Shown here in pieces: positions 1 to 26,399 of a stretch of DNA of 64,000 bases. Within the stretch, counting starts at the first letter, position 1; each line of letters opens with the position of its first letter. The position numbers and the translations under genes were made by a program. Origin of the DNA: Squalus acanthias (lineage: Eukaryota); the NCBI GenBank assembly GCA_030390025.1, contig CM059447.1, forward strand, positions 19,220,001-19,284,000, written 5' to 3'. The notes below the pieces were generated by a model, which worked only from the letters and a program-made list of their open reading frames with translations, did not search any database and was not told the origin of the DNA.

Positions 1-205
1 TACCTGTCCCGGCTCTTTGAAAGAGCTACCCAATTAGTCCCATTCCCCATAGCCCAGCAAAATTTACCCCTTCAAGTATTTATCCAGTTCCCTTTTGAAA
101 GTTATTGTTGAATCTGCTTCCACCACCCTTTCAGGCGGTGCATTCTAGATCATAACAACTGCCTGCATTAAAAAGATTTCTCCTCATCTTGCCTCTGGCT
201 CTTTT
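1..205 (-). mobile_element. CR1 LINE 3' end fragment
   Basis: Matches the CR1 3' region seen elsewhere in the window (ccggctctttgaaagagct; gaatctgcttccaccaccctttcagg); compare 51040-51350 and 63280-63400. Confidence 0.75.
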
Positions 206-1699
206 GTCAGAGACATCAGGCATATACCTGATGTATTAGATGATGAAGATTCACTTGTCTTTAGTTTAAAGATCTACACTATAAGATTATCAACATATAC
301 TGTCGATGGTGCTCACTGATTTAGTGTCCTACTGAAGTATCCATTTGCATTCCAAAGACAGCAAACAATGCAAGAAAACTGACCCCCACCCCCCACCACC
401 ACTATACCTGACCAATAACATGTGGCTAAAGAAAATGCTCTCAAAATCTGCATGGAAGTAATAGCATCAAGAAAACAATGCTTAATAAAGAAAAAATCTG
501 AAGCCCTGCTTCTGTTTTCAAACACTTTCACGTGGACAGTACTACTATTGCTAACTGCATCAGCAACAAATTGTTCAATGTCCCTAACCAAAGCTACCCT
601 GCTGCATTCTAAAGTCACAGCATTGTACAGAATTGATCTGAATTGCGCTTTGATTCGAGGCTAACTGAAACCATTCAGTAGAACTTTCCCAGCTCCTAGT
701 AACAGTCTGTTGTCTATATAGAGAGATCGCCAATGTTCTCACACACGCTGCCTTAGCTAACTGAGCTTTTCCATTGTACAGTAACAGCAGGCCTCAACCC
801 TCACGGTTTTAGGGGCTCAAAGCTATTTTACTGTGTGTACAACACAATGAACATTCAGCCTCCCATTTTTACGAGCTCTGCTCTAGATCCCTGCAGAAAG
901 TGTCATTTACAATTTATACCTAGATATGGGATTCCACTGCCAAAAAATGCTTTATTTAAAAAAAAATTTGTTCTGCATATTAGGAGAAACCTCTGTTTAG
1001 TGATATCAGTATAAATACACTGATTATAAAGCTAATTTACATTCTTCACCTTAAAAGACTGTGAAAGGTAGACTGAAGGTAAACCAGAGGGAATGTTATC
1101 AGAAGTTTGCTGAGGTTACATATTAATTTCCATTCACTGCATCGCAGTGAAAGGAAGGAGTGGCTCAGTACCTGCAACATTTAATTGCATCTTTCCTGTT
1201 GCTATACCAATATTGAATTTATTTTTGCTTCTATTGAAATCTATGGTGTCCCACAGATGCCACCAAATTTATTTTTCCAACCCATGTACACACTGGAAAA
1301 GTATATCTATTAAACAATTCTTCTTAATACCACTGATTGTGAAAATATAGTACCTTTCATCATGTAGTGCACATATTTATTCCATTGGCCGCCCTAGTTT
1401 GCCCTTTAGATTCTGGCTCAGTGATTGGATGGACTCAGACTACCCTTTGTGCCTCTCTCAGCATTCTCGGGCAGGCTCATTGTAGCAACTGTTGTTGCTA
1501 CCTTAAGAGTAGTCCACCTTAAGAGCAGTAACCCCAACTGCCCTGCCTACTCTCCCAAAGACATACCTATCCAACACAACTGTTGGGGACTAATTTCATC
1601 AACCTCCTTCCCACTTCACTCACGGCACCCATCCTGGACACTGCCAGTGGATCAAAATCACTGCCCCTCTGCTCATTTCCCCCCAGGATGTCTGTTAAT

Positions 1700-3592
1700 C
1701 TGTGAACAAGGCATTTTTCAACCACATCCTCATTGTGGATGTCATCCTGGTTTTGACTGAAACTGGCCTATAGGAGAGGCAACACTTTACTTACACATCC
1801 CCTAAGTTTCCTTCAACCCCACTTCCTTCTGCATCCACTTCTGGAAAAACATCACCTCAAGTCACTTACAACTGCACTCTCAAACACGATACTGCCTAGC
1901 CTTTGACCCTCCGTTCACCAGCTCCATTCTGCAGCTGCTGATTTGCTGAACCAGTCCCTCACTTCTATCTCTAATGCCCTTGTCCCCAGTGAAACCTTTA
2001 CTCTCTCCCATCCAGATTGTTCCCCATGGAGTGACCACCATCTTTGCTCCCTCAAGTTAAAAGGAGCATAAACTTCAGTGTGCCTGTCACACAACTGGCT
2101 TAGCTATCCATCGCCAAATCTGGCTTGACCACACCAAGCTCTACCAGGCCTTGCTCTCCTTTACCAAAATGGCCGACTACTTTACAATCATCCTAGAGGA
2201 AAAAGAAAACCCCTGGCTCCTTTTCTCTATTGCCAACCATGTCCTTAAACTGCTCTTCCCCCATACTCCCTCCACCCTCACCTCTAACAACGAGCTAATG
2301 GAATTCTTCATCTCCAAGATAGAGATCATCAATTCAGGTGCCTTTGCTGCTTCCTGCTTTCCTCTGCCCATTAAGCCAAACTGTGCCATCTCATTCCCAC
2401 CCTAGCATTGAACCCTCTTCTCTCCATAGTTTCCCCTCCCCCCAGCTCCTCCGCTGCCCCTCTCTAATCTGATCTCATTCATGAGACCGACATGCTGCTC
2501 CCTCGACCCCAATCCCACCCAACTTCCATTGTAGGCCCCTAGCTGACATTCTAAATGTTTCCCTCTCTGCAGGCACTGTGTCCCCCCCCCCCTACCTTTT
2601 ACAACTGCTGCCATTACTCCCTGCATAAAAATTCTACCCTTGACCCTTTGTCCTAACTAATTACCATCCCATCTTCAACCTCTCTTAATTTCTCAAGTCC
2701 TTGAACATGTTGTTGCCTTCTAGACCTGTGCCCAGCTCTGCTGAAACTCCCTTTTTTTAGTGCCTCCAATCAGATTTCCTACTCTCCCACAGCAATGTAA
2801 CAGCCCTAACTAATGTCACAAACAACAGGTGACTATGACCATGGTGCATGATCCCTTCTCATCCTCCTTGACCTCTGTGCAGCCGCTGACACAGGTAAAT
2901 CACACCATCCTCTTCCAACACCTGTTGTCCAGCTCCATGGTACTGCCCTTGCTAGGTTCTACTCTCACTTGTCCAAACATAGTCAAAGTATCTCCAGTAA
3001 TGGCTTCTCTTCCCAACCCAGCACCATCACCTCAGAAGTTCCCCAAGGATCCATCCTTGGCCCCCCCCCCCCTCTTCTTTGTCATCTACATGCTGTCTCT
3101 CAGTGACATCATCCAAAGCCATGGTGTCAGCCTCCACATGCATGCTGATAGCTCCCATGTCTACCTCTCTTGACCCTCCCACTGCCTCTGTGCTGTCACA
3201 CAGTTTATCCAATATACAGTTTTGGATGAATTGGATCTTTTTCCTGCTAAAACATTTAGAAGACTGAAGTCATTATCTTCAGCCCCAGTCATACAACCTC
3301 CCCTCCCCTGTACTCTTTGTTTCTCTAACTCTGGCCTCTTTTGCATCCCTCCCTTCCTTCACCCTACTACTGTGCCTTTAGCCACCTAGATCCCACTCTC
3401 CGGAATTCCATCTCCAAACCCCTCTCCTTCTTTAAGACCCGCGTTAAAACCCACCTCTACGACTAAGTTCTTTGTAACCCCTCCGAATCACCTGTGCCTC
3501 GGTCTCCATTTTTCCTTACACCTCTGCGAGACACCGTGGAACCTTTTATATGTTGAAAGTGCTATATAAATGCCAATTGTTTTTGTTGTTGT
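1700..3592 (+). mobile_element. Degenerate L2 LINE (ORF2 remnants plus 3' tail)
   Basis: ORF fragments such as ELMEFFISKIEII and PLFFVIYMLSLSDIIQSHGVSLHMHADSSHVYLS resemble L2 RT; ends in gctatataaatgc..(ttg)n tail. Confidence 0.85.
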
Positions 3593-5212
3593 CAATAGTA
3601 CAAGCTGAATATTCCTGAAATTAACATTCACTGAGAAAACAGCAGATGGCACTGGTAGAAAAACAAGTTTTAAAACAGGCCAGCGTCTTTGACTTTTACG
3701 TCTGTGTGAACACAATGGCTTTCTTTTTTCAATTAGGATTTTTGTAGTTAAATAAAAATAGAACATCTGTCAATTACTGCAGTTTTAATGCCAGACGGAT
3801 AGATTACCATGGAATATTTTTGTATGTTAAATAGTAGTCAGGGCGACATTCTGGTTCAATCAGATAATGTAATTATTTACTATACATTACTTAAAATATG
3901 AATGAATGCAAAAAATATATTGCACAGATCTGCATTCAATATCCTAAATATAAATCAAGCAGCTCAGTGGAACTCTGCCAAGTGTAGATGTCTTACATGG
4001 GAAGCAGCAACTTCCATTTTAAACCAATTACCAGCCATCTGCTCAAAAAATGAGCAGTATCCCAGGGTTAGATTTAGAGCCAGGTTAAAAATATGTTTAA
4101 CAGCAGTTACGACACATACTTTCAGGGAAATGATTGGACTGGGCTAAAACGATCAAAGATATTCAAACAAATTTATGGTTGCATGTTATTATGGGCCTGG
4201 AAGTCCACAGAACACAGCACAGTGAGGCTGTAATCTTCAGGAAGTGTGCGCATTCAGGCATGAATTAAGAGCTAAAAATCGATGAAATCTTAACTCAGTA
4301 AAATTGATTATTATTTGTGCAGGCGTCCTCTCCATTACTGTGTCAGCAATACTGTAATGTTGCATGCTTCCTGCTTTTCTAATGCCGTCTAGTTGTCAAT
4401 TTCTAGTTGTGAATTTAACCTGAAATTGACACCTTTGAAATCAAGCACCGAGCGGTGCCTTATTCCCCCACTGAATATATTTCAGCCCACACCACATTAA
4501 GGCCCGAGGAGCTGGGAGCAGAGCACTCTCACAATGACTTCACATTCCCTCCCCCCTCCCCTAGCTCGTTAAGTGGGAGGCCCTCAGCACATCGGAATGG
4601 TGAAATGCCTGCTTCCACCTCTCCGAGAAATTGCAACATGTCGTCCATCCCAACATCCGCAACGTGGAGACAGATCGGAGCGTGCTATTGAAAAAAAAAA
4701 GACACACTGTACACAAATCACACCTCGATCTGAACGACCGAATGCCGTGCGGTAGAAAAAAAAAACACCTTAAACGTGAATTTACCTTCAATCGAGTATC
4801 AACAGCAGCCATAAATAAAACACAAGGATGAGCCCCTCTTTAAAAAAATGGCAGCGCTGTAATCGTATCTCCACTGCAACATAATCAGACTAATCAGATG
4901 AGAGGAGCTCAGGAGCAGCGCCCTGGAGATAGCCATTAACGCTGCGAATCAATTAACTCTTTTAAAGAATGGAAACACTAAACCTTTGTACAGTTCTAAG
5001 CAACCCGTTTACTCTCTCCATCAAGGTTAGTGCGCAGACCCACCCGCGCCATAGAAACCCTCTGAAAGGAGTGTTTTCTGCCCTCCCCGAGTTTATATTT
5101 CGTTCTCCCACCCACCCCAGTCGCCCTGCCATGATCAGTGCGAGAGCGACTGGTATCCCAGTCATTCAAACCCATCAGATATATCTAAAATATGTAAAAG
5201 TGAAAGTCATAC

Positions 5213-5357
5213 CTGTACTGTACTTCCTTTCAAATCCAGGAGAGTTATTGTCTCGCCTTCCTTTGTTTAGAGATGTATTCAATGATATTAGAGCAGTATT
5301 TTTTTTTCAATAAATAATAGTCTATTCCCTCTGCGCTGCCTTGGGCTGCCGTCTCTA
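5213..5357 (-). other. FASN: Non-coding first exon (5' UTR) of fatty acid synthase
   Basis: Minus strand begins AGAGACGGCAGC (5356-5345), which I recall as the start of human FASN mRNA. Ends at donor CAG|GTATGA (5213/5212). Lies below a TTTAAATA TATA box and next to CCDC57 as in mammals. No MEEVVIAG coding exon found in the window. Confidence 0.8.
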
Positions 5358-5510
5358 GAAGCTGGGCTGTGCTTCTCAATGCTTCTCTACATTATTTAAA
5401 TGGCTGATTCGCCGGCTCGACACGCCACATGGTCTGACAGATTGGGTTTTCAGCCCAGTCCAATGAGAGGAGAGGCAGGGCTGGACCACAAGCTCATGAG
5501 ATGATCAACC
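5358..5510 (-). promoter_or_regulatory. FASN: FASN proximal promoter: TATA, SRE/E-box module, CCAAT (NF-Y) boxes, SRE-like site
   Basis: Minus strand reads CTCATTGGACTGGGCTGAAAACCCAATCTGTCAGACCATGTGGCGTGTCG...CATTTAAATAAT, closely matching the mammalian FASN core recalled as CTCATTGGCCTGGGCGG...GCTGTCAGCCCATGTGGCGTGG...TTTAAATA. E-box 5426-5431; CCAAT 5460-5464 and 5441-5445; TATA 5393-5400; SRE-like ATCATCTCAT 5505-5496. Confidence 0.85.
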
Positions 5511-5547
5511 CCCCCTTCAAACGCCTGAGAAGACGCAGTCTCCGTAG

Positions 5548-5563
5548 AGGTTACTACAGTTCA
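5548..5563 (+). promoter_or_regulatory. DR4 nuclear-receptor element (LXRE-like)
   Basis: AGGTTA-CTAC-AGTTCA: two half-sites spaced by 4 nt, ~190-205 bp upstream of the inferred FASN TSS. Confidence 0.7.
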
Positions 5564-6441
5564 TGTGCAACATCACTGTACTGGACGGGCTAAAAAGGTG
5601 CAGAACAGACAGTCTACAATCTGGAACTTCAAACAAATGAAATCTCTTCCTCTGTAGCCCTGGGTTGAAGCCAAATTAAGCGTTTGCAAGTATACTTTGC
5701 AAAGGATTAACTCATTGTTGTAAGAGAAAGGCAGATATCCTTTCTGACTTGTTCTCAAAATAAATGTATCCTAAGATCTCCAGACAATACATTTATATTA
5801 TGTCTCAGGATTGCTTGTGAAGGGCATGTTTGTTATTTGGTACAGACACATTGAGCTGCCTAGTGTTGAACAATGCGTTTCACCCTGGAACTGGCAGGAC
5901 ACGGAATCTTTCTGTGATTCCACCAGTCGTGGTCTCCGACAGGCCGGCGAGAGGTAGGCTCTCAATTGCAGGTAAGCTACTTCGCAACAGCGAGACAAAA
6001 ATCAGAGGGTGAGTCAACCAGCACCACTTGTGTGCATGTACCAGCTCGTTAGAAATAATATTGAGAGCCCTTTGGAGCAGGTTACCTGCCTGACTGCTCT
6101 CCCACCCATGGAGGGCGGTGCAGCAGAAGGAGCAGAAATATGTGAGTGCGATGTGGGGGTGTAATTACATTCAATTGTTGGAAGTTATCTCTCTTTTAAT
6201 CATCTGTCCCAAGATACATATTTTTCGGATGTGAACGCAGAGGCTGGTTCTCCTGGCAACAAAGTCCACGTGAACTTAGTTCTGAAAATAGCCATTGTAG
6301 ACAGATTTTTTTAATGTATTATTCAGCTAATAGTTGCAAAGATGGGCTAAAGGTAGTTAATTTTGAATTCGCACGCATCTGCATTTCCTTTAGTGAACTG
6401 AAATTGGTTGTTGATGCTGTGATATTCCCAGTAGTGAAGCA

Positions 6442-6678
6442 TCCGGGAAGGCGCCGAACACCTCGAGTCTCTTCGCCGGGAGCAAGCGGAAGTCAAGCGC
6501 AGGCAGCGCAAGGAGCGCACGTCAACCCAAGCACCCCGCCCACTCGTCCCTTCAACCACCGTCTGCCCCACCTGTGACAGAGACTGTAGGTCCCGCATTG
6601 GACTCATCAGTCACCTGCAGAACTCATTTTTAATGTGGAAGCAAGTCATCCTCGGTTCCGAGGGACTGCCTAAGAAGA
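6442..6678 (+). mobile_element. 5'-truncated RTE LINE 3' end
   Basis: Near-identical to the RTE 3' end at 31590-31800 (CPTCDRDC zinc knuckle); (AAG)n tail; 9-bp TSD AGTGAAGCA at 6433-6441 and 6679-6687. Confidence 0.85.
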
Positions 6679-7044
6679 AGTGAAGCAAAAGCTCAGATTT
6701 CCCTACTTGCCCTCTTTGAATTTTCTGATGAAAAGTGAACTGAAAGAACTATTGAAATACCTGAAACCAAACCTGAGAAATTAAATAATTATTTCCATGC
6801 AATGGATACTGAGGGGTTTTTTCTTGCATTGGAATACTTTAACTGCCTAAAATGTTATAACATTACAGAATTATTGCAAGAATTACGAATGGGTGCAGGG
6901 GAAAGTATTAGCTTGTGGTACAATTTTCATGATTTTCTAACTGAATTGGTGCAATATTTATTTAAAGAAAAAAAATTGTACCTGTATTTTTTAATTTGCT
7001 TGTTTGGACTGACAACCAATAGGAAGTGATGTTAATGTCTGCAT

Positions 7045-7425
7045 AGAACATACAAAATTCTTACAGGGCTTGACAGGGTAAATGCAGGGAGGATGTTTCC
7101 CCTGGCTGGGGAGTCTAGAACCAGGGGTCACAGTCTCAGAATAAGGGGGTCAGCCATTTAGGACTGAGATGAGGAGAAATTTCTTCACTCAGAGGGTGGT
7201 GAATCTTTGGAATTCTCTACCCCAGAGAGCTGCGGAGGCTCAGTCGTTGAGTATATTCAAGACAGAGATCGATAGATTTTTGAATATTCAGGGAATCAAG
7301 GGATATGGGGATAGTGCAGGAAAGTGGAGATGAGGTAGAAGATAAGCCATGATCTTATTGAATGGCAGAGCAGGCTCGAAGGGCTAAATGGCCTACTCCT
7401 GCTCCTATTTCTTATGTTCTTATGT
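7045..7425 (+). mobile_element. CR1 LINE 3' end
   Basis: Encodes RRNFFTQRVVNLWNSLP; 3' UTR gggctaaatggcctactcctgctcc followed by (ttcttatg)n tail. Confidence 0.9.
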
Positions 7426-9384
7426 TTAACATTAATATTATTTCAGTCTAGTATAAATACAAGTTAAACATTTCACTGTTATGACCAATTATCTTGAATA
7501 AATTGCATTTGTGATTAAACTTCAAAGTGAGAAGACTGTACATTATACCCGCTACTCCAACTCATGTGCACTGCTGTAATTCTTTGGCCCTTGGAACAGG
7601 CTGGAGATTATCTTTTGTCGGTAGATTTGTTTTTTGCTCTGACATGCGTGGAAGTCCGTCAGCATGTTTAATAGTCTCCAAATAAAGCTACTGAGAGAAA
7701 AAGCATACAGGTACATTTTATGTTTGCCCAGTATGGATTGCACAATCTTTCCCCATAGCGTCACACACCACCTATCTAAGTCCAGAGAGCTTAGGCGTAG
7801 GTTTAACCTTGGGGATCCCCAAGTGTCAGGGACTGCTGGATTTAACCAGATAACACTGCATGGCCATCCACTACAGAGCACTAATAAGCTTCCTGCTGCT
7901 TGTCCTATCCATTAAAATATTGGCTTGTACAGTTATCTGGAGCAGTAAGAAGAATCCCAGCCATCAATGACAGATCTAGCTCTCCAGTTTCCATTAGTGA
8001 GCCAAGCTGGCTAGTCAATCATCGACAGTGCCCTGCAGTACTGTGGACCTGCCTACCAAACACCATTGTGTAAGCACTATCACCATGAGGACTGCAGCGG
8101 TACAAGGATAAGGCCCACCACCACCTTCTCGGGGAAACTGGGGATGGATAGTAAATGCAGCCTTGTCAGCATTGCCCACATCCAGAGATCAAATAAAATT
8201 AAAATCCCCTTGGATCCTGGCTTGGGCCTAGTGATTAACCTCCCCTTGCATGCTGCTTGACAGTGCATCTGAACGCCTGGTAGCGCACACAGTTGCTGTT
8301 GCATGCTTCCTGAATTCACATGCAGCAAAAAATAGGTCAGTTCGCAGGAAATGATGCACTGAATCTGTCTCAGCCAAGCAAGGCTTCTTCCTCATTGAGT
8401 ATTGTAAGTGAAAGGTAAATATCTTGTCTTAGCCTTTCTTTTTTCTTTTTATATGCAAACTCCCCCTCCTCACTCAATAGCTAACACCCAGCTCACCAGG
8501 AGTAATGGGTGGGTCACACACTCCTATAATATGATTTAATAATGTATATTTATACCTCACTTCACTCTGTCTTCTGCTCACAATTCCCTAAAATTGAATG
8601 TGTACCATATATTGTGCCCTTTATTCAACAATAAAATCCACTAACGATAAATGAAATGTATTCAATAAGTGTGCAATATATTTCGGACTATATTAAGTTT
8701 CATGTTTGTGATTTATGGCTTTGTGCTATATAATAAACAATTTCACTGCTAAATTCTTTAATGTTTTATTAATCATGTCTTTTTGTAACATTTACATTCC
8801 TAATTTTTTATCTCTATGTTTCAATATTTTATATGTACCTCTCCTCTCCAGCAGATGAGGGTGCTACTTCACACCCAACGTGCTGCCCCTCTTACAGGAA
8901 AATGCCTGGTTCAGTTCAAGTTCTTCCACTATGATGCGTCCCTTCCACTAAGCACCTCCTTCTGACACCCCAGCTGAGTTTGGGAACGTACCATGTGTGA
9001 ATTGTAGGTGCAGACTTGCATCTTGTCACTCAACAGTTCATATGGGTTACCACACTACGCTATAATCATCTTGAGCTCGACTGTTCTCATTGATTTATAA
9101 TTTAGCATCCAGAAATACAAGCAAATATTAGATAACCTTTAGCAGAAAAAAAGACTGAGACTTTAACTTGGGATAAATTCAATCGTAGAATAAAGTCTTG
9201 TGTATAACTATTCCAGTCTAAAAAGTTTCTGCAGTGTTTTCATGATGAAGCTCTGGATTGGCTATCGACAGTTTTTGGTGTTGGCATGCATAGAGAAACT
9301 AATGGGAGGACACTACTACTGCATACTTTATAATGATATATATGGTACAAGCTGTTTGTACTCATGGATAATGCTCCCAGTGCT

Positions 9385-9815
9385 GTCAGCTAGTACAAAT
9401 GAGACTTTGCTATAAAGGTCCCAGTGTAGTACTGAGCCATGTGAAGCTCCTAAAATTTGATCTCCAGCTGAGTTCGACGATCACAGCAAGACTGGCAGTA
9501 GGGTGTGTTACAATAGGCATTAGTGCCCTTGGGTTAGGGAGTGGTGGGGGTGGGGAAATATCAGCCAGTATTTCCACTTCAGACGGTCGCTCAGCGACAC
9601 CTGCTGGATGGGGTGCACGTGGGGTGAGGACGGGATCAGATTCAGCTGTGACGCTCTCCGTAGTGGAATAGCCTACCGCAACACTCTATCAAAGCTCACA
9701 CAGGAAGACCATCCACCTGAGAGAGGCAGTGGAATATTGTCAGCGTCACTGGAACTGAACTCGGTGTGAGTCAGCACCTGCCGGTGAAGAGGTGAAAAAT
9801 GAGGAAAAGAAAGAA
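9385..9815 (+). mobile_element. Old shark SINE family 'B' copy (name not assigned)
   Basis: Shares diverged blocks (gctgagtt..gatc.cagc, aaatcagccag, ggatcagg/attcagctgtga, gaatagcctgcc..cactc) with copies near 28400, 34320 and 58610 (+) and 37250, 40250 and 44450 (-). Confidence 0.6.
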
Positions 9816-10506
9816 CACTAGTTACATTACGACGGATCACACACATTTTTTAAGGCATCAATAATTTGGCAGAATGCGGCGTATCTGAACTTTTAAATTT
9901 ATATTCCCCCCATTTTTTTATTTGTTATTTTCTCTCCTGTAGCATACAACTAACTTACACTGAGGGCACTGCTTATAAAAAATGTAACCTAACCACAAAA
10001 GATGTGCAACATTTTATTTTTGAAAAGCCAATTTGTGGCTTAGCAAAGCCCGGCACCAGGCCCTTCCCTACTCTCTCAGATAGACAATATTTGTAGAATA
10101 AAGTGGATGAGAGAAAAATGTACATTGTGAGTGTCCCATGTTTGAGCACCAGCATGTGCAGTGGGGGGCCAGTGGGTGGAAGTTTGATCCATCACGCTGC
10201 TTGGCTCCTGACTTTATCCGGAAACATGCCAAGTGAAGCAAATACTTCTTCATTAGTTTTGTAAAAACTGGAGGGGGAATCAGTTTTATCCCCCCCCTCC
10301 CCACCTTCCTGAAGCTGTCCTGGGATACAGTTCCATATAGATACCAGGCCCAAGTGAAAGGGGGCTAAGACTGATCCCATTCTCGCCTGTTCACTTGTGT
10401 ACATTTTCCAGCAGGGTTCACTGTGGAGCAATCAGAAGCAGGAACCCTGGACGATGTTCCCTCCCTCTCTCATCCAGGAGTGCTGAAGCCAACTATAGTG
10501 TCCTTG

Positions 10507-11423
10507 CTGTGGTCCAGTGGGTAGCACTCTCACCTCTGAGTCAGAAGGTTGTGGGTTCACAATCCCACTCCACGGGACTTGAGCACAAAAATCCAGGCTG
10601 ACACTCCAGTGCAGTACTGAGGGAGTGCTACACTGTTAGAGGTGCCGTCTTTCGGATGAGACATTAGAAAGAAAGACTTGCATTTATATAGTGCTTTTCA
10701 CGACCACTGGACGTCTCAATGCACTTTACAGTCAATGAAGTACAATCACTGTTGTAATGTAGGAAACGCAGCAGCCAATTTGCGCACAGCAAGCTCCCAC
10801 AAACAGCAATGTGATAATGACCAGATAATCTGTTTCATGATGTTGATTGAGGGATAAATATTGGCCAGGACACCATGGATGACTCCCCTGCTCTTCTTCA
10901 GAATAGTGCCAAAGGATCTTTTCCATCCACCTGAGTGGGCAGACAGGGCCTCAGTTTAACGTCTCATCCAAAAGACAGCACCTCCGACAGTGCAGCACCC
11001 CTCAGTACTGCACTGGAGTGTCAGCCTAGATTTGTTGTGCTCAAGTCCCTGGAGTGGGACTTAGAACCCACAACCTTCTGACTCAGTAAGCGAGGGTGCT
11101 ACCCACTGAGCCACAGCTGACACAAAACTGAGGCCCCGTCTGCTCGCTCAGGTCGACATAAAAGATCCCATGGCACTATTTCGAAGAAGAGTAGGGGAGT
11201 TGTCCCCTGTGTCCAGGCCAATATTTATCCCTCAATCACTAAAAAAAAAACAGATTATCTGGTCATTATCACATTGCTGTTTGTGGGAGCTTGCTGTGCG
11301 CAAATTGGCTGCCATGTTTCCTACATTACAACAGTGACTACATTTCAAAAAGTACTTCATTGGCTGAAAAGCGCTTTGGGGCGACAGGTAGTCGTGAAAG
11401 GCGCTATAGAAATGCAAGTCTTT
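10507..11423 (+). mobile_element. Deu-domain tRNA-SINE (SacSINE1/AmnSINE1-like), host copy split by a second copy
   Basis: tRNA-like A/B boxes, central gatgagacgttaaaccgaggcccc..gatcccatggcact domain, L2-like tail gcgctatagaaatgcaagtcttt. Host = 10507-10665 plus 11124-11423. Confidence 0.85.
10666..11123 (-). mobile_element. Full-length Deu-domain SINE nested antisense in the same family
   Basis: Complete head-to-tail reverse-complement copy interrupting the host at gagacatt|aaactgaggcccc. Confidence 0.85.
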
Positions 11424-12231
11424 CACTGTTGCACCTGTCAGTACAAGCTGGGGTTTCCCCGGTTAGCCCACCAGATAATCATATGAGCCAAAAACAGCAG
11501 CTTCACAATGGAGAAGGAAAAATCCGAAGCAACGTTCCCCTCCAGCTGCTCCTAAAAGTCAGCGTAGAGCAGCATTTGCAGAGAAAAGCAGAGGGTTTTT
11601 ATCCCCTTACAATTTTTTTTAATTAAGTGCAATAAAGATTGAATAGGGCCTAAAAATAACCAGCCATTACTTTTAAACACACTTTTAAACGTTGATAGTA
11701 TATACAGACGGCGGAGCAGGAAGCTGTCAATCAAGGAGGAAGCTGAGTCAATCATGGAACAGACAGCCATTCACAGAAGGAGGGTATGGAGGTGGGGCGA
11801 GTCTGTCCAATCATGTGCAGCGGATGGGTGCAGTGCAATGATGGGCTGATGTGGTGGTGTTGTTTGAAGGGGCAGGGCTTAATGTAAAGGGCGTGTTGCA
11901 GAAATCAGTACTGCCAAGCTGTGAACTGAAGCTTACCCTCGGTCATTCACCTCAGGACACACTGATTCAGGATCAGGGAACTGAAGGGTTACTAAAAGTC
12001 ATTCATAGCACTGTCTAGCATTGGGGATGCTGCTAAAATAGTGTTTCAACATAAAACATGTACTTTTTTTTTTACAAATCTGACATTGTGTTAAAGTAAG
12101 CAATTTACTGCATGAATGCTAAATGTCTGAAGGTTTAAATGTAACTTGCTAAAGGAAATTTCTTTCACAATGTATAATGTCTGGGAGTGACTCAAAGAGG
12201 ATCTCTGGAGAGGGAAGCATCTATTTAAACG

Positions 12232-12360
12232 ATAGCAAAATACTGCAGATGCTGGAAATCCGAAATAACAACAGAAAACGCTGGAAAAACTCAGCAGGCG
12301 AGGCAGCATCTGTGGAGAGAGAAACAGAGTTAACGTTTCAGGTCGATGACCTTTTGTCGT
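12232..12360 (-). mobile_element. Penelope-like element terminal fragment
   Basis: Reverse complement gacctgaaacgttaactctgtttctctctccacagatgctgcc; same family as 17390, 23345 and 57260. Confidence 0.6.
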
Positions 12361-12737
12361 CGCATCTATTTAATCCTGACTATTCCTACACTACTGCAGT
12401 GCTTCTGATCTGTGACCTTACCCACATGTGAAGAACCTCACATTCTCCCCATGTGAGCATCACAGCAGAGCCTGATCCAGTTCTCACTTGGCGTTCACAC
12501 ACGTTGTTGCAATTCAGGCTATTAAAGCATTGTTTTCTCATTCAAACGACCTGACAAGTTTTCAGAAGGGCTGCACACCCCTTACAACCTGAAACCTGCA
12601 ACTTTCGCTTTCTGCCCTTGAGGTAACAGCCACGATCTAAGAATGAACCCTGACGGCAGTTAATTACATCTTGGAGATTACATGGCATTCCCATAATGTT
12701 TTCAGTTTTTTTGGACGTTGCAATTCAGGCTTTTAGA

Positions 12738-14525
12738 ACAACAACGACTGCTTGTATTTAACGCCTTTAACATAGCAAAACGTCCCAAGGCGCTTCACAG
12801 GAGCGCTATTAAACAAAATTTGACACCGAGCCACAGAAGGAGTTATTAGGGCAGATGAGGCAGGTTTTACGGGGCGTCTTAAAGGAGGAAAGAGAGGCGG
12901 AGGGGTTTAGGGAGGGAATTCCAGAGCTTTGGGCCTAGGCAGCTGAAGGCACGGCCGCCAATGGTGGAGCGATTATAATCAGGGATGCTCAAGAGGTCAG
13001 AATTGGAGGAGCGCAGATATCTCGGGGGTGGGGGGGGGGGGTTGTGGGGCTGGAGGAGGTTACAGAGATAGGGAGGGGCGAGGCCATGGAGGGATTTGAA
13101 AACAAGGATGAGAATTTTGAAACCGAGGCGTTGCTTAACCGGGAGCCAATGTAGGTCACCGAGCTCAGGGGTGATGGGTGAACGGGACTTGGTGCGAGTT
13201 AGGACACGGGCAGCCGAGTGTTGGATCAGCTCAAGTTTACGGAGGGTAGAACTTGGGAGGCCGGCCAGGAGTGCATTGGAATAGTCAAGTCTAGCGGTAA
13301 CAAAGGCATGGATGATGGTTTCAGCAGTGGATGAGCTGAGGCAGGGGCGGAATCAGGCGGTGTTATGGAGGTGGAAATAGGCAGTTTAGTGATGGCGTGG
13401 ATATGTGGTTGGAAGCTCATTTCAGGGTCAAATATGACACTAAGTTTGTGAACAGTCCGGTTCAGTCGCAGACAGTTGCCAGGGAGAGGGATGGAGTCGG
13501 TGGCTAGGGAACGGAGTTTGTGGCGGGGACCGAAGACAATGGCTTCAGTCTTCCCAATATTTAGTTGGAGGAAATTTCTGCTCATCCAGTACTGGATGTC
13601 AATTTAGAGACAGTGGAGGGGTCGAGAGAGGTGGTAGTAAGGTAGAGCTGGATGTCGGCAGCGTTCATGTGGAAACTGACGCTGTGTTTTCAGTTGATTT
13701 CACCAAGGGCAGCATGTAGATGAGAAATAAGAGGGGGCCAAGGATAGATCCTTGGGAGACACCAGAGGTAACGGTGCGGGAGCGGGAAGAGAAGCCATTG
13801 CAGGTGATTCTCTGGCTACGATTAGATAGATAAGAATGGAACCAGGCGAGTGCAGTCCCACCCAGCTGGACGATGGTGGAGAGGCAGTGGAGGAGGATGG
13901 AGTGGTCAACCGTATCAAAGGCTGCAGACAGTTCGAGAAGGCAGAGGAGGGATAGTTTACCTTTGTCACAGTCACAGAGGATGTCATTTGTGACTTTGAT
14001 AAGAGCCGTGGTGGGGCGGAGAACTGATTGGAGGGATTCAAACGTGGAGTTGCGGGAAAGATGGGCACGGATTTGGGAGGCGACAACACGTTCAAGGACT
14101 TTGGAGAGGAAAGGGAAGTTGGAGATGGGGCAGTAGTTTGCAAGGACGGAGGGGGTCAGGGGTTGGTTTTTTGAGGAGAGGGGTGATGACGGCAGATTTG
14201 AAGGAGAGGGGGACAGTACCTGAGGATAGAGAACCGTTAACAATGTCAGCTGACATGGGAGCCAGGAAAGGAAGTTGGGTGGTCAGCAGTTTAGTGGGAA
14301 TAGGGTTGAGGGAGCAGGAAGTGGGTCTCATGGACAAGATGAGCTCGGAGAGGACATGAAGGGAGATCGGAGAGAAACTGAAGAAAGGTGCGAGTTCAGG
14401 GCTAGGGCATGGGGGAACCTTAGAGGAAGTTTGGCCCGGTGGGCTAGGGGAAGGGAGGGAAGTGACAGAGGCAGCTGATCGGATGATCTCAATCTTAGTG
14501 ACAAAGAAGTCCATAAGCTCCTTGC
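12738..14525 (-). mobile_element. L2 LINE, 5'-truncated
   Basis: ORFs 13665-14243 (NYCPISNFPFLSKVLERVV...SAAFDTVDH...GVSQGSILGPLLF) and 13226-13585 (NFLQLNIGKTEAIVFG) are L2 reverse transcriptase. Confidence 0.92.
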
Positions 14526-15844
14526 ACTGTTTTCTCATTCATTCGGGTTGGGGAAACCCTTGCCTCTGTACCATGCTATAACATTTGTCACGGCTGGGTG
14601 CGCTGATGGTGCTTTGGCTTTGTTTAGCTTTTCAGTTCTTGTCTGATTCTGAGTAACTGCAGATGGTATCTTTATACTGAGATCCATATTCTCTGATAAT
14701 ACATCATACACCAGTGTAACTGCATCTTCTACTTCTTGTTCTTCAGTTCAAAAGGGACATTACTTTTGCTAAAGGCAGATCTTCTTCCCCCCCAAAATGC
14801 TAGGAATGTGGGCACTCCTTCCCTCTTGAAATTGAACATCGCCCACCAGATGTGGACTAACTAAAGTTAGGCTGCAGCCTACATCACTCGGGCCTTCTGT
14901 TATATGATCATTTACGATGATCTGGTGGAAATATTTTATGGAATTCACTGCACATTTCTCAGGTCTCACAGCATAATTCAGTCTTCCAGACAGTGCCCCA
15001 GACCCTCCGGGACCAACAGTCATTCACTTTGCATCCCACCTTATTCCAATTCTAACATTCAATGTCCCTAAAATTAGCCTCTGTGATCAGTCCACAGCTC
15101 ATAGCTTTTCGCGTCAGAAAGTTTTATTTGAATTTTTAGCAGGTTAATTTGTGAGTTTTAAAAAATATGTTCTTGGGATGTGGGCGATGTTGGCAACACT
15201 GAATTAATTGCCCTGAGAAGGCAGTGGGCCTTCGCCTGTAGTGATTGTTTGTACAGCTCAGTGTCTTGCTCGGTCACGTTAGTGGCCATTAACAGTCAAC
15301 CACATAGCGGCACATGCCGGCTAGAACAGGTAGTCCCTTGGAATAAAAAACAGTCTCTCTTCATATCCCACAGGTAGGGAGTTTTATGTAAAATAAGTAA
15401 ACCAAAACGCCCACTGAGCTCTTTAATTTAAACTGCCTTCTGAAATCCAGTAAAATCTAAGCAACCACAAAAAAGGACCTGATTTCCGCTTCCTACTATT
15501 ACTTTGGAAGATGAAGGGTAAGTCTTTGTTTCCTCATCAATGATATTGTTTTCATCAAACTCCTTAGTCGTGATTCCACAACGCAGCACTCGAAGTGGAG
15601 AGCGGAGCTGACAGAGAATGCATCTTTGGAAAATTATAAACTGTACACCTGCAATTTCTCGAAGTATTCCCTGCTGAGATCAGTTAACGCCACACAGATT
15701 AGCAATTAGACCTTGGACTTTGTAATCTGTGGTTTAGACCACTCGGTGCTGTCTTTGCTCTTTAACCAGGGAAGCTAAAAATAATGTTTTATCCTTTCGA
15801 TCTCTTTTCAGAAATGACTAAAGGAAATATAACAACATTCAAGA

Positions 15845-17260
15845 TCACAAGGTACATAAGGATGAAGAAGGCCATTTGGCCCATCTTAAGTCATCCATCC
15901 AGAACAACCCTAAACTTCCCTAATTGCTGCATCCAATTGATTCTTAAATGATTCCCGGGTTTTTGCCTCTCTGCCCAGAAATCCAATCCTAGTGTTGATC
16001 ACTCTGCATGAAGAAGAACCTCCTGATATTAATCCTAAAAGTACGTTTACTAGTTTGAACCTGTTTCCCCTCGTCCTACGCCCACTGTTTATTTTAAAGT
16101 AGTATTCCGGATTAACCTTTTCAATACCATTTACTATCTTAGATACCGCTATATGATTGCCTCTCAGGGGCCTCATTTCCAAGCTAAAAGCCCAAGTCTC
16201 TCCCGTCTTTCCTCAGACTCCTCACACAATATTTATCCCTCAATCAACATCACTAAAACAGATTATCTGGTCACTATCACATTGCTGTTTGTGGGAGCTT
16301 GCTGTGCGCAATATTGGCTGCCGCGTTTCCTACTTTACAACAGTGACTACACTTCAAAAAGTACTTCATTAGCTGTAAAGCGCTTTGGGATGTCTGGTGG
16401 TCGTGAAAGGCGCTGTAGAAATGCAAGTCTTTCTTAGGGATCAACCTTGTGGATCTTCTCTGCATTGCGTCCAGTGCTTGAATGTCTCCCTTGTATCTCA
16501 ACAAGTACAACTGGACACAGTACTCGAGGTATGGTCTGAATAGAACACTGTACAGTTTGATCACAACTTCCTCTGACTTGCAGTTTAACATTCTATTGGC
16601 TTTGTTGATTTGTTTTTGCACTGGTTGGTCATGTTGAGGTTTGAGTGTACTCAGACTCCTAGGTCTCTTTCAACTTCAGTCTTGGCTACTTCAACATCAT
16701 GCATGGCGTACATGTGCCATCCATGTTTCCTTCCTATGTGCAATTAGTTACACTCGTCTGCATTTAATTGCACCTGCCATTGTTTGGCCCATTCACATAT
16801 TTTGATTAGTTCATTCTGTGGTTTCAGGGCTATCTCCTTTGATTCCTCCTCCCCCCTCCAAATTTGGTATCATCTGCCAATTTGACCAATTTGCATTGAA
16901 TCTCTGAATCCAAGTCTTTGATATAAATTAGAAACTGCCGTGCAACCAATACTGAGCATTGGTGCTACCCCACTCAGTACTTCCTCCCACCCTGATATCA
17001 CCCTTCTAACCAGTACACTTTGTTTCCTACCCTTCAGCCAATTTCTTATCCGTACCTAAGCTTTGCCTTGAATCGCCATAGCTTTGAGCATAATTAATAA
17101 CGTTTCGTGTGGAAATTTATCAAATGCCATTTGGAAATCTAAGTATACAACTTTGTAGAGTTTCCACAGTCAACTTGGCTTGTCACTTCCTCAAAGAAAT
17201 CAAGGAGGGTGATCAGTTTGGATCTTTGCCATCTAAAACCATGCTGGCTTTTGTTTGTTA
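15845..17260 (-). mobile_element. Degenerate CR1 LINE with an internal Deu-SINE fragment (16226-16433, +)
   Basis: LFRPYLEYCVQ, RRTRGNRFKL and other CR1 ORF2 motifs; the SINE body interrupts it. Confidence 0.85.
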
Positions 17261-17389
17261 GACATAAAACATTAAACCTACATTCCTTTCTCCAAGATGC
17301 TGCCTGACCAGCTGAGTGTTGCCTGCATTTTCTGTTTCTACGGCATTTCCTGACCTAGAGAATGCACAAGAAAATACCTAATAGATTAG

Positions 17390-17712
17390 AAGCAAAATAC
17401 GGTGAACACTGGAAACCTGAAATAAAATCAGGAAATGCTGGAAACACTCAGCAGGTCAGGCAGCATCTGTGGAGCGAGAAACGGAGTTAACGTTTCAGGT
17501 CGCTGAGCTTTCATCAGAACTGGAAGATGTTAGAGATTAACAGCTGTAAGCAAATACAGAGCCAGGGAATAAAGAAGGGGGGGGGGGGGGAGCAGGAAAA
17601 GAATAAAGGGGAAGGTCTGTGATAAGGTGGAGGGCAGGAGTGATTAAATGACAAAAGGTCAGTGCAAAAGGGACTGATAATAGGACAAGTAAAGAAACAA
17701 ATGATAGGTCCA
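17390..17712 (-). mobile_element. Penelope-like element fragment with minimal hammerhead motif
   Basis: Minus strand AGTT-CTGATGA-A-AGCTC-AGC-GACCT-GAAA-CGTT-AACT (17521-17485), followed by the ctccacagatgctgcc terminus. Confidence 0.65.
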
Positions 17713-17720
17713 AAAAAAAA

Positions 17721-18105
17721 GACTTGCATTTATATAGCACCTTTCATAACCTCAGGATGTCCCGAAGCAGTTTACAGCCAATGAAGTACTTTTTGAAGTG
17801 TGGTCACTGCTGTAATGTAGGAAATGTGGCAGTCAATCTGCGCACAGCAAGCTCCCACAAACAGCAATGTGATAATGACCAGATAATCTGTTTTTGTTAT
17901 GTTGATTGAGGGATAAGTATTGGCCAGGACACCGGGGAGAACTCCCCTGCTCTTCTTCGAAATTGTGCCATGGGATCTTTTACATCCACCTGAGAGAGCA
18001 GACGGGGCCTCGGTTTAACGTCTCATCTGAAAGACGGCACCTCCGACAGTGCAGCACTCCCTCAGCACTGCACTGGAGTGTCAGGCTAGATTTTTGTGCT
18101 CAAAT
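17721..18105 (-). mobile_element. Deu-domain SINE
   Basis: Reverse complement of the family body and tail. Confidence 0.88.
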
Positions 18106-19202
18106 CTCTGGAGGGAATCTTAAGGAGGTGTAAATGGCTATAGCAGAATACCAAAATGGGAGGGTAGCGTGAAAAATGTGGTAAAGAGGCGAAGGCTCCC
18201 GTGGCTCGGGAATGTGGCAGAAGAAATATAGATAGACCCTTTGGGTTGTGGACCACCCCGCCGGCCATGTGCCTAATATATCTCTGTCTTTGACACTCTG
18301 GAGGTAGAGAAGAATGATATGCTCAATAATTTTCTCTCCCTGCATGAGAAGAAATTTGTAGTAAGGCTGAGCTTCGGTGCTTGGTTGTTTTATGTTTTGA
18401 GTCAACTGAATTTCATTAAATTAAATGTAAATTTTGGGTTTTCACACACAACAGTGGAATTTTCTCACTGTAAGCAAGTGTTTCACTGTTTTCACAAGGT
18501 CAGCCTGTGTTACAGAATGTCCTTCACACATATTTAATATTGTTGGGAAAAGATGTACATTTAGATGCTGCAAAGAATGATGAGTTATGAAAGACCTTTT
18601 TAAAATCAAGGCCAATGATAGAAGATTCATGATTAGTTTGTATGAATACATTGTAGTGTCTTGCCCTCCTCTTCATGTACATTTTAGAGGTCACTGGTTC
18701 AGATCATGTAATTTAATTCTTACACAAAGTTATTAAAGATGAATGAAAATCAAAAAGTTTGAGATTTGATTGAAACTGCAGTTAATGATAGCCAGCTATG
18801 AAACCAACAGATAAATTTGCTTACAAGCCTCAACTGAATTACAAAGTTAATATCTAACTGTGATTTATTTAGTCAATAAGTTTATTAAGTAAAAATAACC
18901 ATGCCGCTATACTAAGAAACACAGTAACAAATTGACAATAGACAATAGGTTTGGTACAGCAACTGTAAAAGTAATGATTTTATTTTAAATTGAATTTAAT
19001 ACTACAATTTTTGTCTTAATGAACAGCACAAACTCATTTCATGCGTGAATCATAAAGTATAATGCTATTTAAATAGCATTAGATACAGTGTTGCATAAAT
19101 TTCCCCCCCAACATTACAATAGATTCAATTATCACAATTCTACATTTAAAAAAAACCACACAGATTAAAGTGGGCAAGTTATTTATGTAGTATTATTATT
19201 CA

Positions 19203-19720
19203 GCAGGGTTCCCACAGGTGTATGGAGCAATTGCTAGATCGTGCATGACACTCAAAGCCCTATATAATGACCATCTCAATTTTATGAATAGGAAAATCTT
19301 TCATTCTATTAATGTCCAGCTAGTGCGCAATGCCACTCACCTTATCCTACTTGTCAATGCCAAGTACCCAGGAAGCTGCCATGATGTTTTCATCATGTGA
19401 TAGTCCATCATTTCAGCCCTCATTACAGAGCCATGTATTCAGATGGTTGATTGGTAATTAGGACTACCTCCTGCTGTCATGGCTAATGACTCCAGTAAGG
19501 CTTTTACAGACAGAACGAGGCAACAGATACATTGAGGCCCATGTCACTACAAGAAGTGTCATAGAACAGACTTTAGGAATGATCAAATGTGATGGATCCC
19601 CGCAGCACAGCCCAGAAAGAGTCTCAAGAATCATTGTAGCTTGCTTCGTTCTTCATAACATGGCAATGAAGAATGGCTTGCTGCTTCCGGAAGCTAAAGG
19701 CGATGATGAAGAAGAGGAGG
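19203..19720 (+). pseudogene. PIF/Harbinger DDE transposase (HARBI1-like) fossil
   Basis: AGFPQVYGAI, NRKIFHSINVQLV, AKYPGSCHD, YLLLSWLMTP, HVTTRSVIEQTLGMIK and SPERVSRIIVACFVLHNMA are Harbinger transposase motifs; contains stops and frameshifts. Confidence 0.88.
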
Positions 19721-21099
19721 TGGAAGGTCTTCTCTCCCCCACAGCATGTGAAGGGTGCGCAGGAAGGAGAGGATGTGGGACAGGACAGCCACCAGTCAAT
19801 AACTGTCAAGAGTTCAGAGAAAGAAGGTGCAATTGACAGCTCACTGCTTTTAATAAACAAAGGTGCACTCACCAAATAAAGTCACTTCACACCTCACAAA
19901 CTCCCTCACTGTCGAAGACTTCTGCCAAGTTCCTTCATAAGACAAAAAAAATCTACATTTCCCCGACTTCATGCCAACTCCGCCCCACCCCCAAAACCTG
20001 AAAGCATCTACAGAAATGACCTCAGAACTTTGTACAGAAGCTGTGCTTACTTCACACATTTTCTCCAAAAAGTGCCAACAATTCCAATCACCTTATCTAC
20101 AGCTACTTCTTAAACTGCATCTCACCTTTGTGCTAGGAAACTTATTTGCTTGTGCTCCTAATTTACTGCTTCAATGAAGTGCTCCCTGATTGAGATGGAG
20201 TTGAGGTGGGTGGCTGGGATAGTCCCTCTGGAGCATTAGAAGCCTGAGGTGACTCTCGTCGCAGGGAAGCAGCTGCCCTGGGGTATCGGCTTCGGGTTGT
20301 TTCCCTTGCAGGGTGCCAGGCCCACATCTGTAGTCTGTAGTCTGTAGTTGGTCAATGAAAGTACAGGACAAATAATTGTAACCAGGTCTTGAAAATCTCG
20401 TGAAAGTGTCCTGTTCAGGGCACTATTAGCTGGCATTCCTTAGTACTGTAGTTGTTCTTAGCATCTTGATACTGCAAAAATCTGCTGGGCTCTCACAGTC
20501 TCCAGGGTGTTCTGCAGGTCGTGGGAAACTTTCCCGCAATGCGTTGAAGACTCATGTGGAGCATAAGCACTGGCGTAGAGCTGTTGGGCCGAATGGCCTG
20601 TTCCTGTGCTATAAATACTTTATAAGATACAGGTAGTGGACTACTCCCATTTATCCATCATTTCCATCATGTGTATAGAAACGTTCTTCAGTGCCTCCAT
20701 GAGATTGATGCTCCCTAGTCATAGGTCTTTTGAAGAGTGGACCCCTGAGATCTGGGTCCCTAAGCTCCTCAGTCAAGGGTGGTAATTTCTCCGCCCCCCC
20801 ACCCCCTTGGAGCAACGGCACTCTTGTCCTCAATCTCACTGGTGCTCAGTGCTTCACCCAGTGACAATCCTCCAGACTACTAGTTACTTCCTCCCGAGTG
20901 GGTGTCTCTGTGCTGGTGCTTGCGCAGGTATGACATCACGATACAGTTGGTGAGAGAGTAGCAGCAGTGAGGCTGTCGGTCTGGCAGGCAATCCCCCATT
21001 GAAAGTACCTGGGTGCTCATCATGTTGATCAGCTTCTTCCTGTAAGGCACCCCTTATGTTGTGAAATGCAGAAAAGCTTGTTTATCTGGGCATTCAGAA

Positions 21100-21445
21100 A
21101 CATTCCCTCTTGAAGCCCCACTCCAGCACAAAATGTAGGTTGATAGTTCAATACAGTACTGAGGGAGCACTGCACTGTTGGAGGCCACATCTGCCCTCTC
21201 ACATGAATGTAAACGATCGCATGTCACTTCAAATATGAACAGGGGAGCTCCCCTGGTGTTCTAGCCAACATTTATCCCTCAACCAACACCAGATTACTGG
21301 TCAATTATCTCACTGCTGTTTGTGGAACCTTGTAGTACACAAATGTTACCCTGCATTTCCCTACATTACAACAATGACTACACTTAAATTATTTCATTGG
21401 CTGTGAAATGCTTTGGGAAGTTAAATATAAATGCAAGCTCTTTCT
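21100..21445 (+). mobile_element. Diverged Deu-domain SINE
   Basis: cagtactgagggagcactgcactg, tttatccctcaaccaac, ctacattacaacaatgactaca and aatgcaag tail. Confidence 0.8.
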
Positions 21446-21823
21446 TCAAAGAAATCGTTGCTGAGTGTAAGGGCATTTCAATACTTTTGAGAAAATACAT
21501 TAAGCTGACACTACCTATGATTAACATTGCCCAACTTTTACCAACCTTCTGTTGCCACCTCGCTTCCAACCTTGCCCTTTCCCACAGATTCTCCTGTCTC
21601 TATGCCCACAGTGTGCAGTGTCTCCTTGTCATGTGCACTCAGGGTTTTCAGCATAGCTGCTTCTCCTCCAGTTGTAGTTCTTTGGCGTTGATTGTCCTTT
21701 GGAGGGACATGTGAGTGACATAGATACTTTCCCCCATCTAAGTGCATGCATCCCATGATAAAGTCCTTTTAAATCAAGTGTTTGTGAAGACTAGAGGTAG
21801 CCCTTGTGCGGTCAATGTGAGTG

Positions 21824-21926
21824 TATTGTAATTCCTCGTCTTTGCAGTTGTTGCTGAATGTTTCTGTTTTGTTCCAGTTTCAGGAAGGTGGTAAGGTTTT
21901 GCTGTGGACTTTAGCGTTAGCTCCTT
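21824..21926 (-). pseudogene. Diverged duplicate of the CCDC57 terminal coding exon
   Basis: Aligns to 25142-25249 with 11 mismatches in 103 nt and a 5-nt deletion (hand count). Confidence 0.85.
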
Positions 21927-21989
21927 TATCCAGTGCGGTTAAGGTATCCCCATTTCCTAATCTGTGCTGAAGTACTTCATCTCAGCCGG

Positions 21990-22378
21990 GTAGTAAACCA
22001 TCTTCACATATAATGAATTGCTTTGAAGTGCAGTGACTGTTGTGGAAGCCATTGTGATTACAGCAAGATCTCACAAAATACAATATGATGAATGACCAGT
22101 AAATATGATTTTTTTGCTGGTGTTGGTGAGGGAGCAATGTTGGGCAGGACACTGGGAGAACTCCCTGCATTTCTTTAGTGTCATTGGATCTTTCATATCC
22201 ATCTGTACCACTGGAACAGGGCCTTGGTTTAAAATCTCATCTAATGAATGGCACCTCTCTCAATGCAGTACTCCCTCAGAATTGCACTGGAGTGTCAGCC
22301 AAGATTACACAGAAGTGGAGTTTGAACCCACAAACCCCTGATTCAGAAGTGACATTGTTACCAATTGAGCCACACTAA
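21990..22378 (-). mobile_element. Diverged Deu-domain SINE
   Basis: gcactggagtgtcagcc, tttgaacccacaaacccctgattcaga and ccaattgagccac are the reverse-complement head. Confidence 0.75.
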
Positions 22379-23344: not shown

Positions 23345-23560
23345 AGTCCAAAAATGCTGGAAACACTCAGCAGGTCAGGAAGCATCTGTGGTGAGAGGAA
23401 GGTAAGGTTAATGTTTGAGCTTGATGATCTTTTGTCAGAACCCAAAAGGTTATCGGTCTGAAACATTAGCCTACCTTCCTCTCCACAGATGCTGCCTGAC
23501 TAGCTGAGTATTTCCAGCATTTTCTGATTTTATTTCAGATTTCCAGAAGCTGCAGTGTTT
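23345..23560. mobile_element. Penelope-like inverted-repeat terminus
   Basis: aaaatgctggaaacactcagcaggtcagg..catctgtgg and ccacagatgctgcctgac..ctgagtatttccagcatttt form imperfect inverted arms. Confidence 0.65.
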
Positions 23561-23954
23561 TACTTTTAGTTCCATACGTAAAGTGTTTGAGCCCAACCAT
23601 GCGAAGAGTTTGGGGCCTTCAGGTTGACACTTCAGTGCAATGGTCCTATTTGGAGAAGTTTCACCAGTTGGTCGGACTTCCGGGAATTCTGTGTCAAAGC
23701 GAACTCGTCCTGCTCTGGAAAACACACCCCTTCTTCATAAATCCTGAAATGGTACCAAGGCCACTCATAGTTTGTGGCCTAGGTGTGTGGCTTTCAAAAT
23801 TTTCTGAGTGGAGAACCCCCTGCAAATATTGACATTGTTGGGAACCACCTATCCTAATATCTGAAAAACAGTGTCAGACACACAAATAGAAAATTATTAG
23901 TATGCAGCAACAGAAACAACACACTAGTGAGCAGACATACAGAATACTGCTGGA

Positions 23955-24508: not shown

Positions 24509-24509
24509 T

Positions 24510-25130: not shown

Positions 25131-25339
25131 TTAGTCACGTATATTGTAATTTCTAATCTTTGCAGTTTTTGTTGAATGTTTCTGTTTTGTTCCAGTATCA
25201 GTTAAGTGGTGAGGTTTTGTCTTGCTGTGGACTTTAGCTTTAGCTCCTTGCATGGCGTACATTGGTTCCATTCCAGCTTTCTTTATGGCAACAGTGTCTT
25301 GCACTGACGGCATCGATCCTGTGTTATTCCCAACATTAT
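25131..25339 (-). CDS. CCDC57: CCDC57 terminal coding exon (DNVGNNTGSMPSVQD...KTAKIRNYNIRD*)
   Basis: Acceptor tttttttctag; phase-1 start fits exon 39868-40120; C-terminal KIRNYNIRD matches the CCDC57 end (human KIRNYNIMD); TAA stop. Confidence 0.9.
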
Positions 25340-25955
25340 CTAGAAAAAAAAACTTTCTTTAAAAAAAAACAATTTGTGAATGATTGAAACAGTGTGTTTC
25401 CAATCAGTTACTAATTTATTAAATTAGACTAGAAGATTTCTTATACTGCCCATTGTTATACGAGAAAGAATGACAAGGCCAGGTGTTCAAAAGGGCAAAA
25501 CAGAAAATCCAATGAATCGCGATACAATAGAGCTTGGTCCAAAAAATAGCATCGGTCTCCTGCATTCAGACTTTTCACCCCCTCCCCACATCCATCAGTA
25601 ATAATTGTAACCTTGGAAAACATTCTTCCCCTTTCTCCTCCTAAAAAAAAAGCACCAATTCCTGATCCTTTTTATAGTAAAAGTCCATTCGAGATTCTTT
25701 GCATGCACCTTTTTCAAAGATATGCTGATAAGATATATGGAGCTAGCCATAATATGCAGCACCTCTAAGAAGAAATGCTATACAAATGGAATATCATTTT
25801 TTGTAGATAAAGCCTTTCAACTGTAACTAAATTATATGAGACATAATTCTTGTTGGTCACAAGAAAGCACCCAGTGCGACTGTTTTTGTATAGTGATACT
25901 GTTTAAAGGTAAGGAAACTGGATAATTTCCCAATCTTTGGGAATTTTGATTTAAT

Positions 25956-26381: not shown

Positions 26382-26399
26382 TAAGTTCCTAAAATCAGT

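Follow-up and report, generated by a model that had tools for sequence, protein, structure and literature searches.

The likely main FASN promoter of the shark Squalus acanthias shares motif blocks and part of their spacing with its mammalian counterpart

Results

The window analyzed here is a 64-kb stretch (C24:19220001-19284000, contig CM059447.1) of the 3.7-Gb genome of Squalus acanthias. The initial annotation had proposed that the gene to the left of the window is FASN, and the gene itself bears this out. A profile search (PF00109) located KS exons on the same strand as the promoter described below, starting at C24:19212809, 12.4 kb downstream. The translation of the first KS exon (exon 2) begins MEDIVIAG, and FASN proteins are its top PDB matches. 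For exon 9, the PDB match to FASN (E 7e-62) is far better than that to animal polyketide synthase (PKS; 1e-31), and identity is 90% to a whale shark FASN-like protein, 65-73% to named amphibian, bird and sturgeon proteins, 61% to a primate protein and 50% to a lamprey protein. With FASN relatives as queries, tblastn traced a full KS-MAT-DH-ER-KR-ACP-TE coding series in one gene, running from C24:19212809 to 19146372. Both the PDB and the protein comparisons favor FASN over animal PKS for this gene.

Exon 5 (C24:19206269-19206468, equivalent to L018:2269-2468) is frameshifted in the assembly, which could spoil annotation of the gene. Contigs from all four sequencing runs carry one additional base here relative to the assembly, so the frameshift is likely an assembly error, and we rejected the idea of a broken FASN gene.

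The upstream neighbor of FASN is CCDC57, whose last coding exon lies within the window (Table 1) and is 85-96% identical to named shark CCDC57 proteins. Exons of the DUS family (PF01207) lie downstream of FASN, giving the gene order CCDC57-FASN-DUS-family; the human order is CCDC57-FASN-DUS1L. A sturgeon database protein, P0070, is a fused CCDC57 and FASN prediction, likely an annotation artefact, in which CCDC57 also precedes FASN. At 21822-21914 the window holds a second, partial and diverged version of the last CCDC57 coding exon (65-69% identical), and broken reverse-transcriptase-like frames at 12879-14538 and 26368-27657, labeled by inspection, are likely LINE retrotransposon remnants. 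Elsewhere in the genome, C4:142845841-143061171 contains at least three near-identical spliced sets of KS exons, likely tandem animal polyketide synthase genes, and an intronless KS at C4:76075873 may be the mitochondrial enzyme. Rfam gave no matches in positions 1-20000 of the window.

Table 1. Features of the FASN 5´ region, in window coordinates.
Feature	Position	Strand	Basis
CpG-rich start of intron 1	4600..5213	.	CpG observed/expected 0.89 vs 0.36 at 6000-12000
Minor alternative 5´ exon or extended exon 1, donor 4786	4786..5064	-	one X3 contig
FASN non-coding exon 1; donor AG/GT after 5213	5213..5370	-	X1/X2/X4 contig joints; 5´ end inferred
12-nt 5´ UTR block common to human	5345..5356	-	12/12 to published human primers
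Predicted main transcription start	5366..5371	-	TATA +30 and E-box = -65 (rodent numbering)
8-nt direct repeat, two copies 10 nt apart	5370..5387	-	repeat search; single copy in L024
TATA-like box TTTAAATA, 31 nt past E-box start	5393..5400	-	8/8 to human primer core
Tandem SRE-like sites flanking E-box CATGTG (5431-5426), predicted USF/SREBP site	5418..5441	-	20/24 to -75/-52 probe
Second, forward CCAAT	5441..5445	-	G where mammalian probe and L024 have T
Pyrimidine block and inverted CCAAT (core 5464-5460), predicted NF-Y site	5453..5481	-	19/24 to ICE probe; 24/29 to L024
SRE-like site, 74 nt upstream of E-box	5496..5505	-	7/10 to classic SRE, weak; 494 window sites score equally
DR-4, LXR-response-element-like (TGAACT-4-TAACCT), 132 nt upstream of E-box	5548..5563	-	12/16 to human FASN LXRE; predicted
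Candidate distal enhancer, ~6.5 kb upstream: DR-4-like, SRE-like, E-box, CCAAT cluster	11730..12001	-	motif count
CCDC57 last coding exon, upstream neighbor of FASN	25134..25343	-	tblastn

Transcript evidence came from contigs of four runs (X1-X4), RNA by presumption, from which neither starts nor strand can be read; contig depth was left out of ranking and of start placement. Contigs from three of the runs (X1, X2 and X4, representing two studies) leave the window at 5213 and continue as the start of exon 2, across a ~12.4-kb intron 1. The initial annotation had anticipated that 5213 would be joined to an exon of the MEEVVIAG type, and the exon joined is the MEDIVIAG one. Four further junctions downstream, with GT-AG ends, are found in all four runs. 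By the 5213 junction, the promoter motifs sit at the 5´ end of the spliced FASN mRNA and, as in mammalian FASN, exon 1 is non-coding. Position 5213 is uncovered in X3, where one contig is spliced from 4786 to exon 2; an unspliced X4 contig crosses 4786. This alternative exon contains five upstream ATGs. Human FASN has a second promoter within intron 1, of which the 4786 exon may be an analogue; our literature search returned no report of that second human promoter.

The promoter stretch is single-copy in the genome. Reading along the minus strand, it contains CTCATTGG (5467-5460), TGGGC (5457-5453), the second CCAAT (5445-5441), TGTCAGACCATGTGGCGTG (5439-5421), TTTAAATA (5400-5393) and AGAGACGGCAGC (5356-5345), followed by the splice donor after 5213, so that each motif listed in the initial annotation is present and in the order given there. 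A pattern of CCAAT, E-box and TATA matched once in the window and in none of 100 shuffles, and a CCAAT plus E-box pattern matched once in the 3.7-Gb genome, with no match for the reversed control. Because the site supplied both patterns, the comparison with published mammalian sequence is the independent test.

That reference consists of printed oligonucleotides and primers, 96 nt from mixed species, taken from passages of the source papers: the ICE probe, -110/-86 (PMC12673625), the SRE probe, -75/-52 (PMC10910086), a human EMSA probe (PMC13314538) and human ChIP primers (PMC6089769; PMC6120245). Together, the ICE and SRE probes match the shark sequence at 39 of 48 bases (19/24 + 20/24) at their published offset of 35 nt. 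The next best two-probe score in 224 kb, counting both strands, is 27, and the null maxima are 28 (2000 shuffles of 1 kb) and 31 (30 shuffles of the 64-kb window). Other offsets between the probes score 19+3 to 19+9, compared with 19+20 at offset 35, and the 20/24 match to the -75/-52 probe at 5418-5441 is unique in the window. The expected mammal-like CCAAT and SRE/E-box blocks are thus both found, at the published spacing.

When all published pieces are anchored on their motifs, 65 of the 96 bases (68%) are identical, a count over printed sequence, which spans neither the 11-nt gap from one probe to the other nor the stretch past the TATA box. The promoter had been described as preserved "almost base for base". 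This is apt for the motif blocks, which are near-identical, and overstated for the whole, because the linkers diverge, those around the TATA box included (TATA primer 11/21, UTR primers 12/22). The gene, the order and orientation of the motifs and the 36-nt distance between CCAAT block and E-box are those of rat, mouse and human FASN promoter I; the TATA core and the 12-nt UTR block are identical. The shark promoter differs in its lower GC content, divergent linkers, extra CCAAT, small duplication past the TATA box and 12.4-kb intron 1, and in having no GGGCGG box nearby and no ChoRE that we could find.

The second CCAAT, which had been singled out as a shark feature, is indeed present. A single substitution separates it from the mammalian probe and from L024 (described below), and it lies 19 nt from the first CCAAT, a distance likely too short for two NF-Y trimers; it is likely incidental.

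Transcription starts ~30 nt past a TATA box. In the shark, the spacing of both TATA box and E-box suggests a main start at ~5368 (5366-5371), 10-14 nt upstream of 5357, the mammal-like start named in the initial annotation; contigs of two of the four runs reach upstream past both positions. As the contigs carry no information on start or strand, this position is one that we infer from spacing. The 8-nt repeat separates the TATA box from the AGAGACGG block. It is likely a small duplication that displaced the UTR block downstream, and may explain the gap of 10-14 nt.

A second copy of this architecture came from a scan of a metagenome collection with the SRE/E-box motif. One of the seven matches, on a vertebrate-like contig (L024), is accompanied by a CCAAT box and a TATA box. 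The other six, like both genome_contigs matches and the single viral match, have no TATA box and were dropped as chance. In a blastn comparison of L024 with the 224-kb region, the shark promoter is the best match (62 nt, 82%, E 7.5e-11), and 24 of 29 bases agree outside the search pattern. L024 has the spacings of the shark, with 36 nt between CCAAT block and E-box and 31 nt between E-box and TATA box, and the same order of DR-4, CCAAT block, SRE/E-box, TATA box and GT donor. It differs in having no second CCAAT, in largely lacking the 12-nt UTR block and in placing the DR-4 11 nt further upstream (143 nt from the E-box, compared with 132 in the shark). No coding exon is found on L024.

The DR-4 is absent from the initial annotation and was found by a motif scan, as two RGKTYA-like half-sites with a 4-nt spacer at 5548-5563. 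It matches the human FASN LXRE at 12 of 16 bases in the same orientation. Passages of PMC5548719 give the human sequence and place the element between -0.82 and -0.36 kb, compared with ~190 nt upstream in the shark; this distance raises the possibility that the proximal location is the older of the two. Across 448 kb, 12 sites score at least 12/16 against the human LXRE, and a stricter DR-4 pattern, written after the site had been seen, has two matches, at 5563 and 12001, which makes the DR-4 by itself suggestive. A DR-4 can also serve the thyroid hormone receptor. In the literature search, no FASN LXRE with the spacer of the shark site turned up. Both LXR paralogues are present in chondrichthyans, according to PMC5381633.

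Other elements known from mammals are weaker or were not found. The SRE-like site at 5496-5505, likewise missing from the initial annotation, fits the consensus YCAYNYCAY and lies 74 nt upstream of the E-box, compared with 85 nt for the rodent -150 SRE; only its ATCA core aligns in L024. In mammals an Sp1 GC box lies near the CCAAT box, and in the shark no exact GGGCGG occurs within 700 nt, the nearest being at 6113. Sterol regulation of the mammalian promoter reportedly needs Sp1. The distal ChoRE enhancer known for FASN lies ~7 kb upstream; in the shark the ChoRE consensus has no match with up to one mismatch in 4000-16000. Further upstream, the single-copy cluster at 11730-12001 equals the proximal promoter for the most motif matches among 1274 overlapping 300-nt windows, and includes a decamer that we take to be of the PBX/PREP type. 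Compared with shark 5600-25100, the upstream part of L024 gives no meaningful match, and conservation therefore lends the distal cluster no support.

Discussion

We conclude that this region comprises the upstream part and non-coding exon 1 of shark FASN and is likely, with a probability of roughly 0.8, the main TATA-directed promoter of the gene, with CCAAT, SRE/E-box and DR-4 elements predicted from sequence to serve NF-Y, USF/SREBP and LXR-RXR as in mammals. The promoter is orthologous to the mammalian one and deeply conserved in blocks, and represents no new type of element and no new mechanism.

How such a promoter could work is suggested by its mammalian counterpart. USF on CATGTG together with NF-Y bound 36 nt upstream would form a fixed platform; the 36-nt distance is seen in the shark, in rodent numbering and in L024 alike. 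In mouse adipocytes, NF-Y binds the ICE probe (PMC12673625), and passages of a review (PMC8699568) describe USF on the E-box, its cooperation with SREBP and LXR acting directly on the mammalian promoter. By analogy with that review, USF on the shark E-box would cooperate with SREBP and be needed for SREBP binding. After feeding, nuclear SREBP would bind the E-box-flanking sites or the upstream SRE-like site, and LXR-RXR on the DR-4 would contribute sterol input. Sharks and mammals would both have received the cassette from their last common ancestor, with purifying selection keeping motifs and spacing while the linkers drifted.

An alternative that we consider unlikely, though well short of negligible, accepts the orthology of the core promoter and holds that it is a basal or housekeeping one, served by USF, NF-Y and TBP, which SREBP and LXR brought under nutritional control at a later stage. 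The weak match of the upstream SRE (7/10) and the lack of a ChoRE in 4000-16000 would fit such a history. In mouse liver in vivo, moreover, USF alone and not SREBP was found on the proximal E-box, with the upstream SRE as the SREBP site, according to passages of the same review (PMC8699568), and this keeps the basal reading alive. Against it stand the E-box-flanking bases, which are kept (20/24 over the -75/-52 probe), and the DR-4, which is kept in both shark and L024. USF alone is not known to need the E-box-flanking bases.

It is also conceivable, but quite improbable, that the main start lies further upstream, at ~5530-5970, and that the conserved block is a transcribed secondary promoter or a conserved 5´ UTR. 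An X4 contig spans 5213-5527, and X3 contigs cover 5278-5430 and 5556-5971, so either some RNA begins upstream of the motifs or DNA was present. Yet the contigs show neither starts nor strand, and those of X1 and X2 that include exon 1 stop at 5248 and 5316. In L024 the TATA box lies at the same 31-nt distance, and leaders as long as this reading requires would contain upstream ATGs. We also observed low-depth X2 and X3 contigs upstream of the promoter, at 5556-5971 and 6078-6300, with X2 covering 5620-5758. The CCDC57 3´ UTR is an unlikely origin for these upstream contigs, given that 19 kb separate them from the end of the last CCDC57 coding exon.

Finally, single motifs are common in the window (173 CCAAT, 56 CAYGTG), but the probability of a chance or convergent assembly is close to nil given the 39/48 match at the exact offset, far above all nulls, the location at the 5´ end of the orthologous gene and the repetition of the architecture in L024; for the core this reading is refuted, whereas the SRE-like site (5505), the extra CCAAT and the distal cluster may still be chance occurrences.

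There is also a bolder proposal, to which we would give somewhat less than even odds. At the time when LXR alpha and beta arose, the gnathostome ancestor might already have possessed the whole cassette, consisting of the LXR DR-4, NF-Y, SREBP/USF and TATA elements, as a single compact unit of 200 nt. The 36-nt spacing between NF-Y site and E-box would have been frozen since then, implying a rigid enhanceosome, while the distant LXRE and Sp1 dependence of mammals would have come later and the cluster at 11.7-12.0 kb would be a shark distal enhancer without a ChoRE.

Our literature search, which missed most of the classic promoter papers, found no report of shark-mammal conservation of the FASN promoter; public vertebrate alignments may already display it. 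For the yellow catfish, passages of PMC6071087 describe a FAS promoter with a TATA box, CAAT boxes and predicted SREBP1 sites, and call fish and mammalian core promoters different, without a base-level alignment in those passages. Passages of PMC2878982, PMC4811486, PMC7597640, PMC2844827 and PMC3909891 (LXR probe) have no bearing on the shark sequence.

Promoters seldom remain alignable between sharks and mammals, and the shark FASN promoter amounts to a natural mutagenesis of a textbook metabolic promoter. The CCAAT block, the E-box flanks, the 36-nt spacing and the DR-4 appear constrained, and the linkers, the GC box and the distance of the LXRE appear free to vary. This pattern bears on whether SREBP binds the E-box flanks in vivo. 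It deepens a known system, and provides a ready reporter fragment for the lipid biology of the shark liver. It is a reasonable inference that the fat-synthesis switch likely dates to the jawed-vertebrate ancestor, which would place sterol and feeding control of fat synthesis in early jawed vertebrates.
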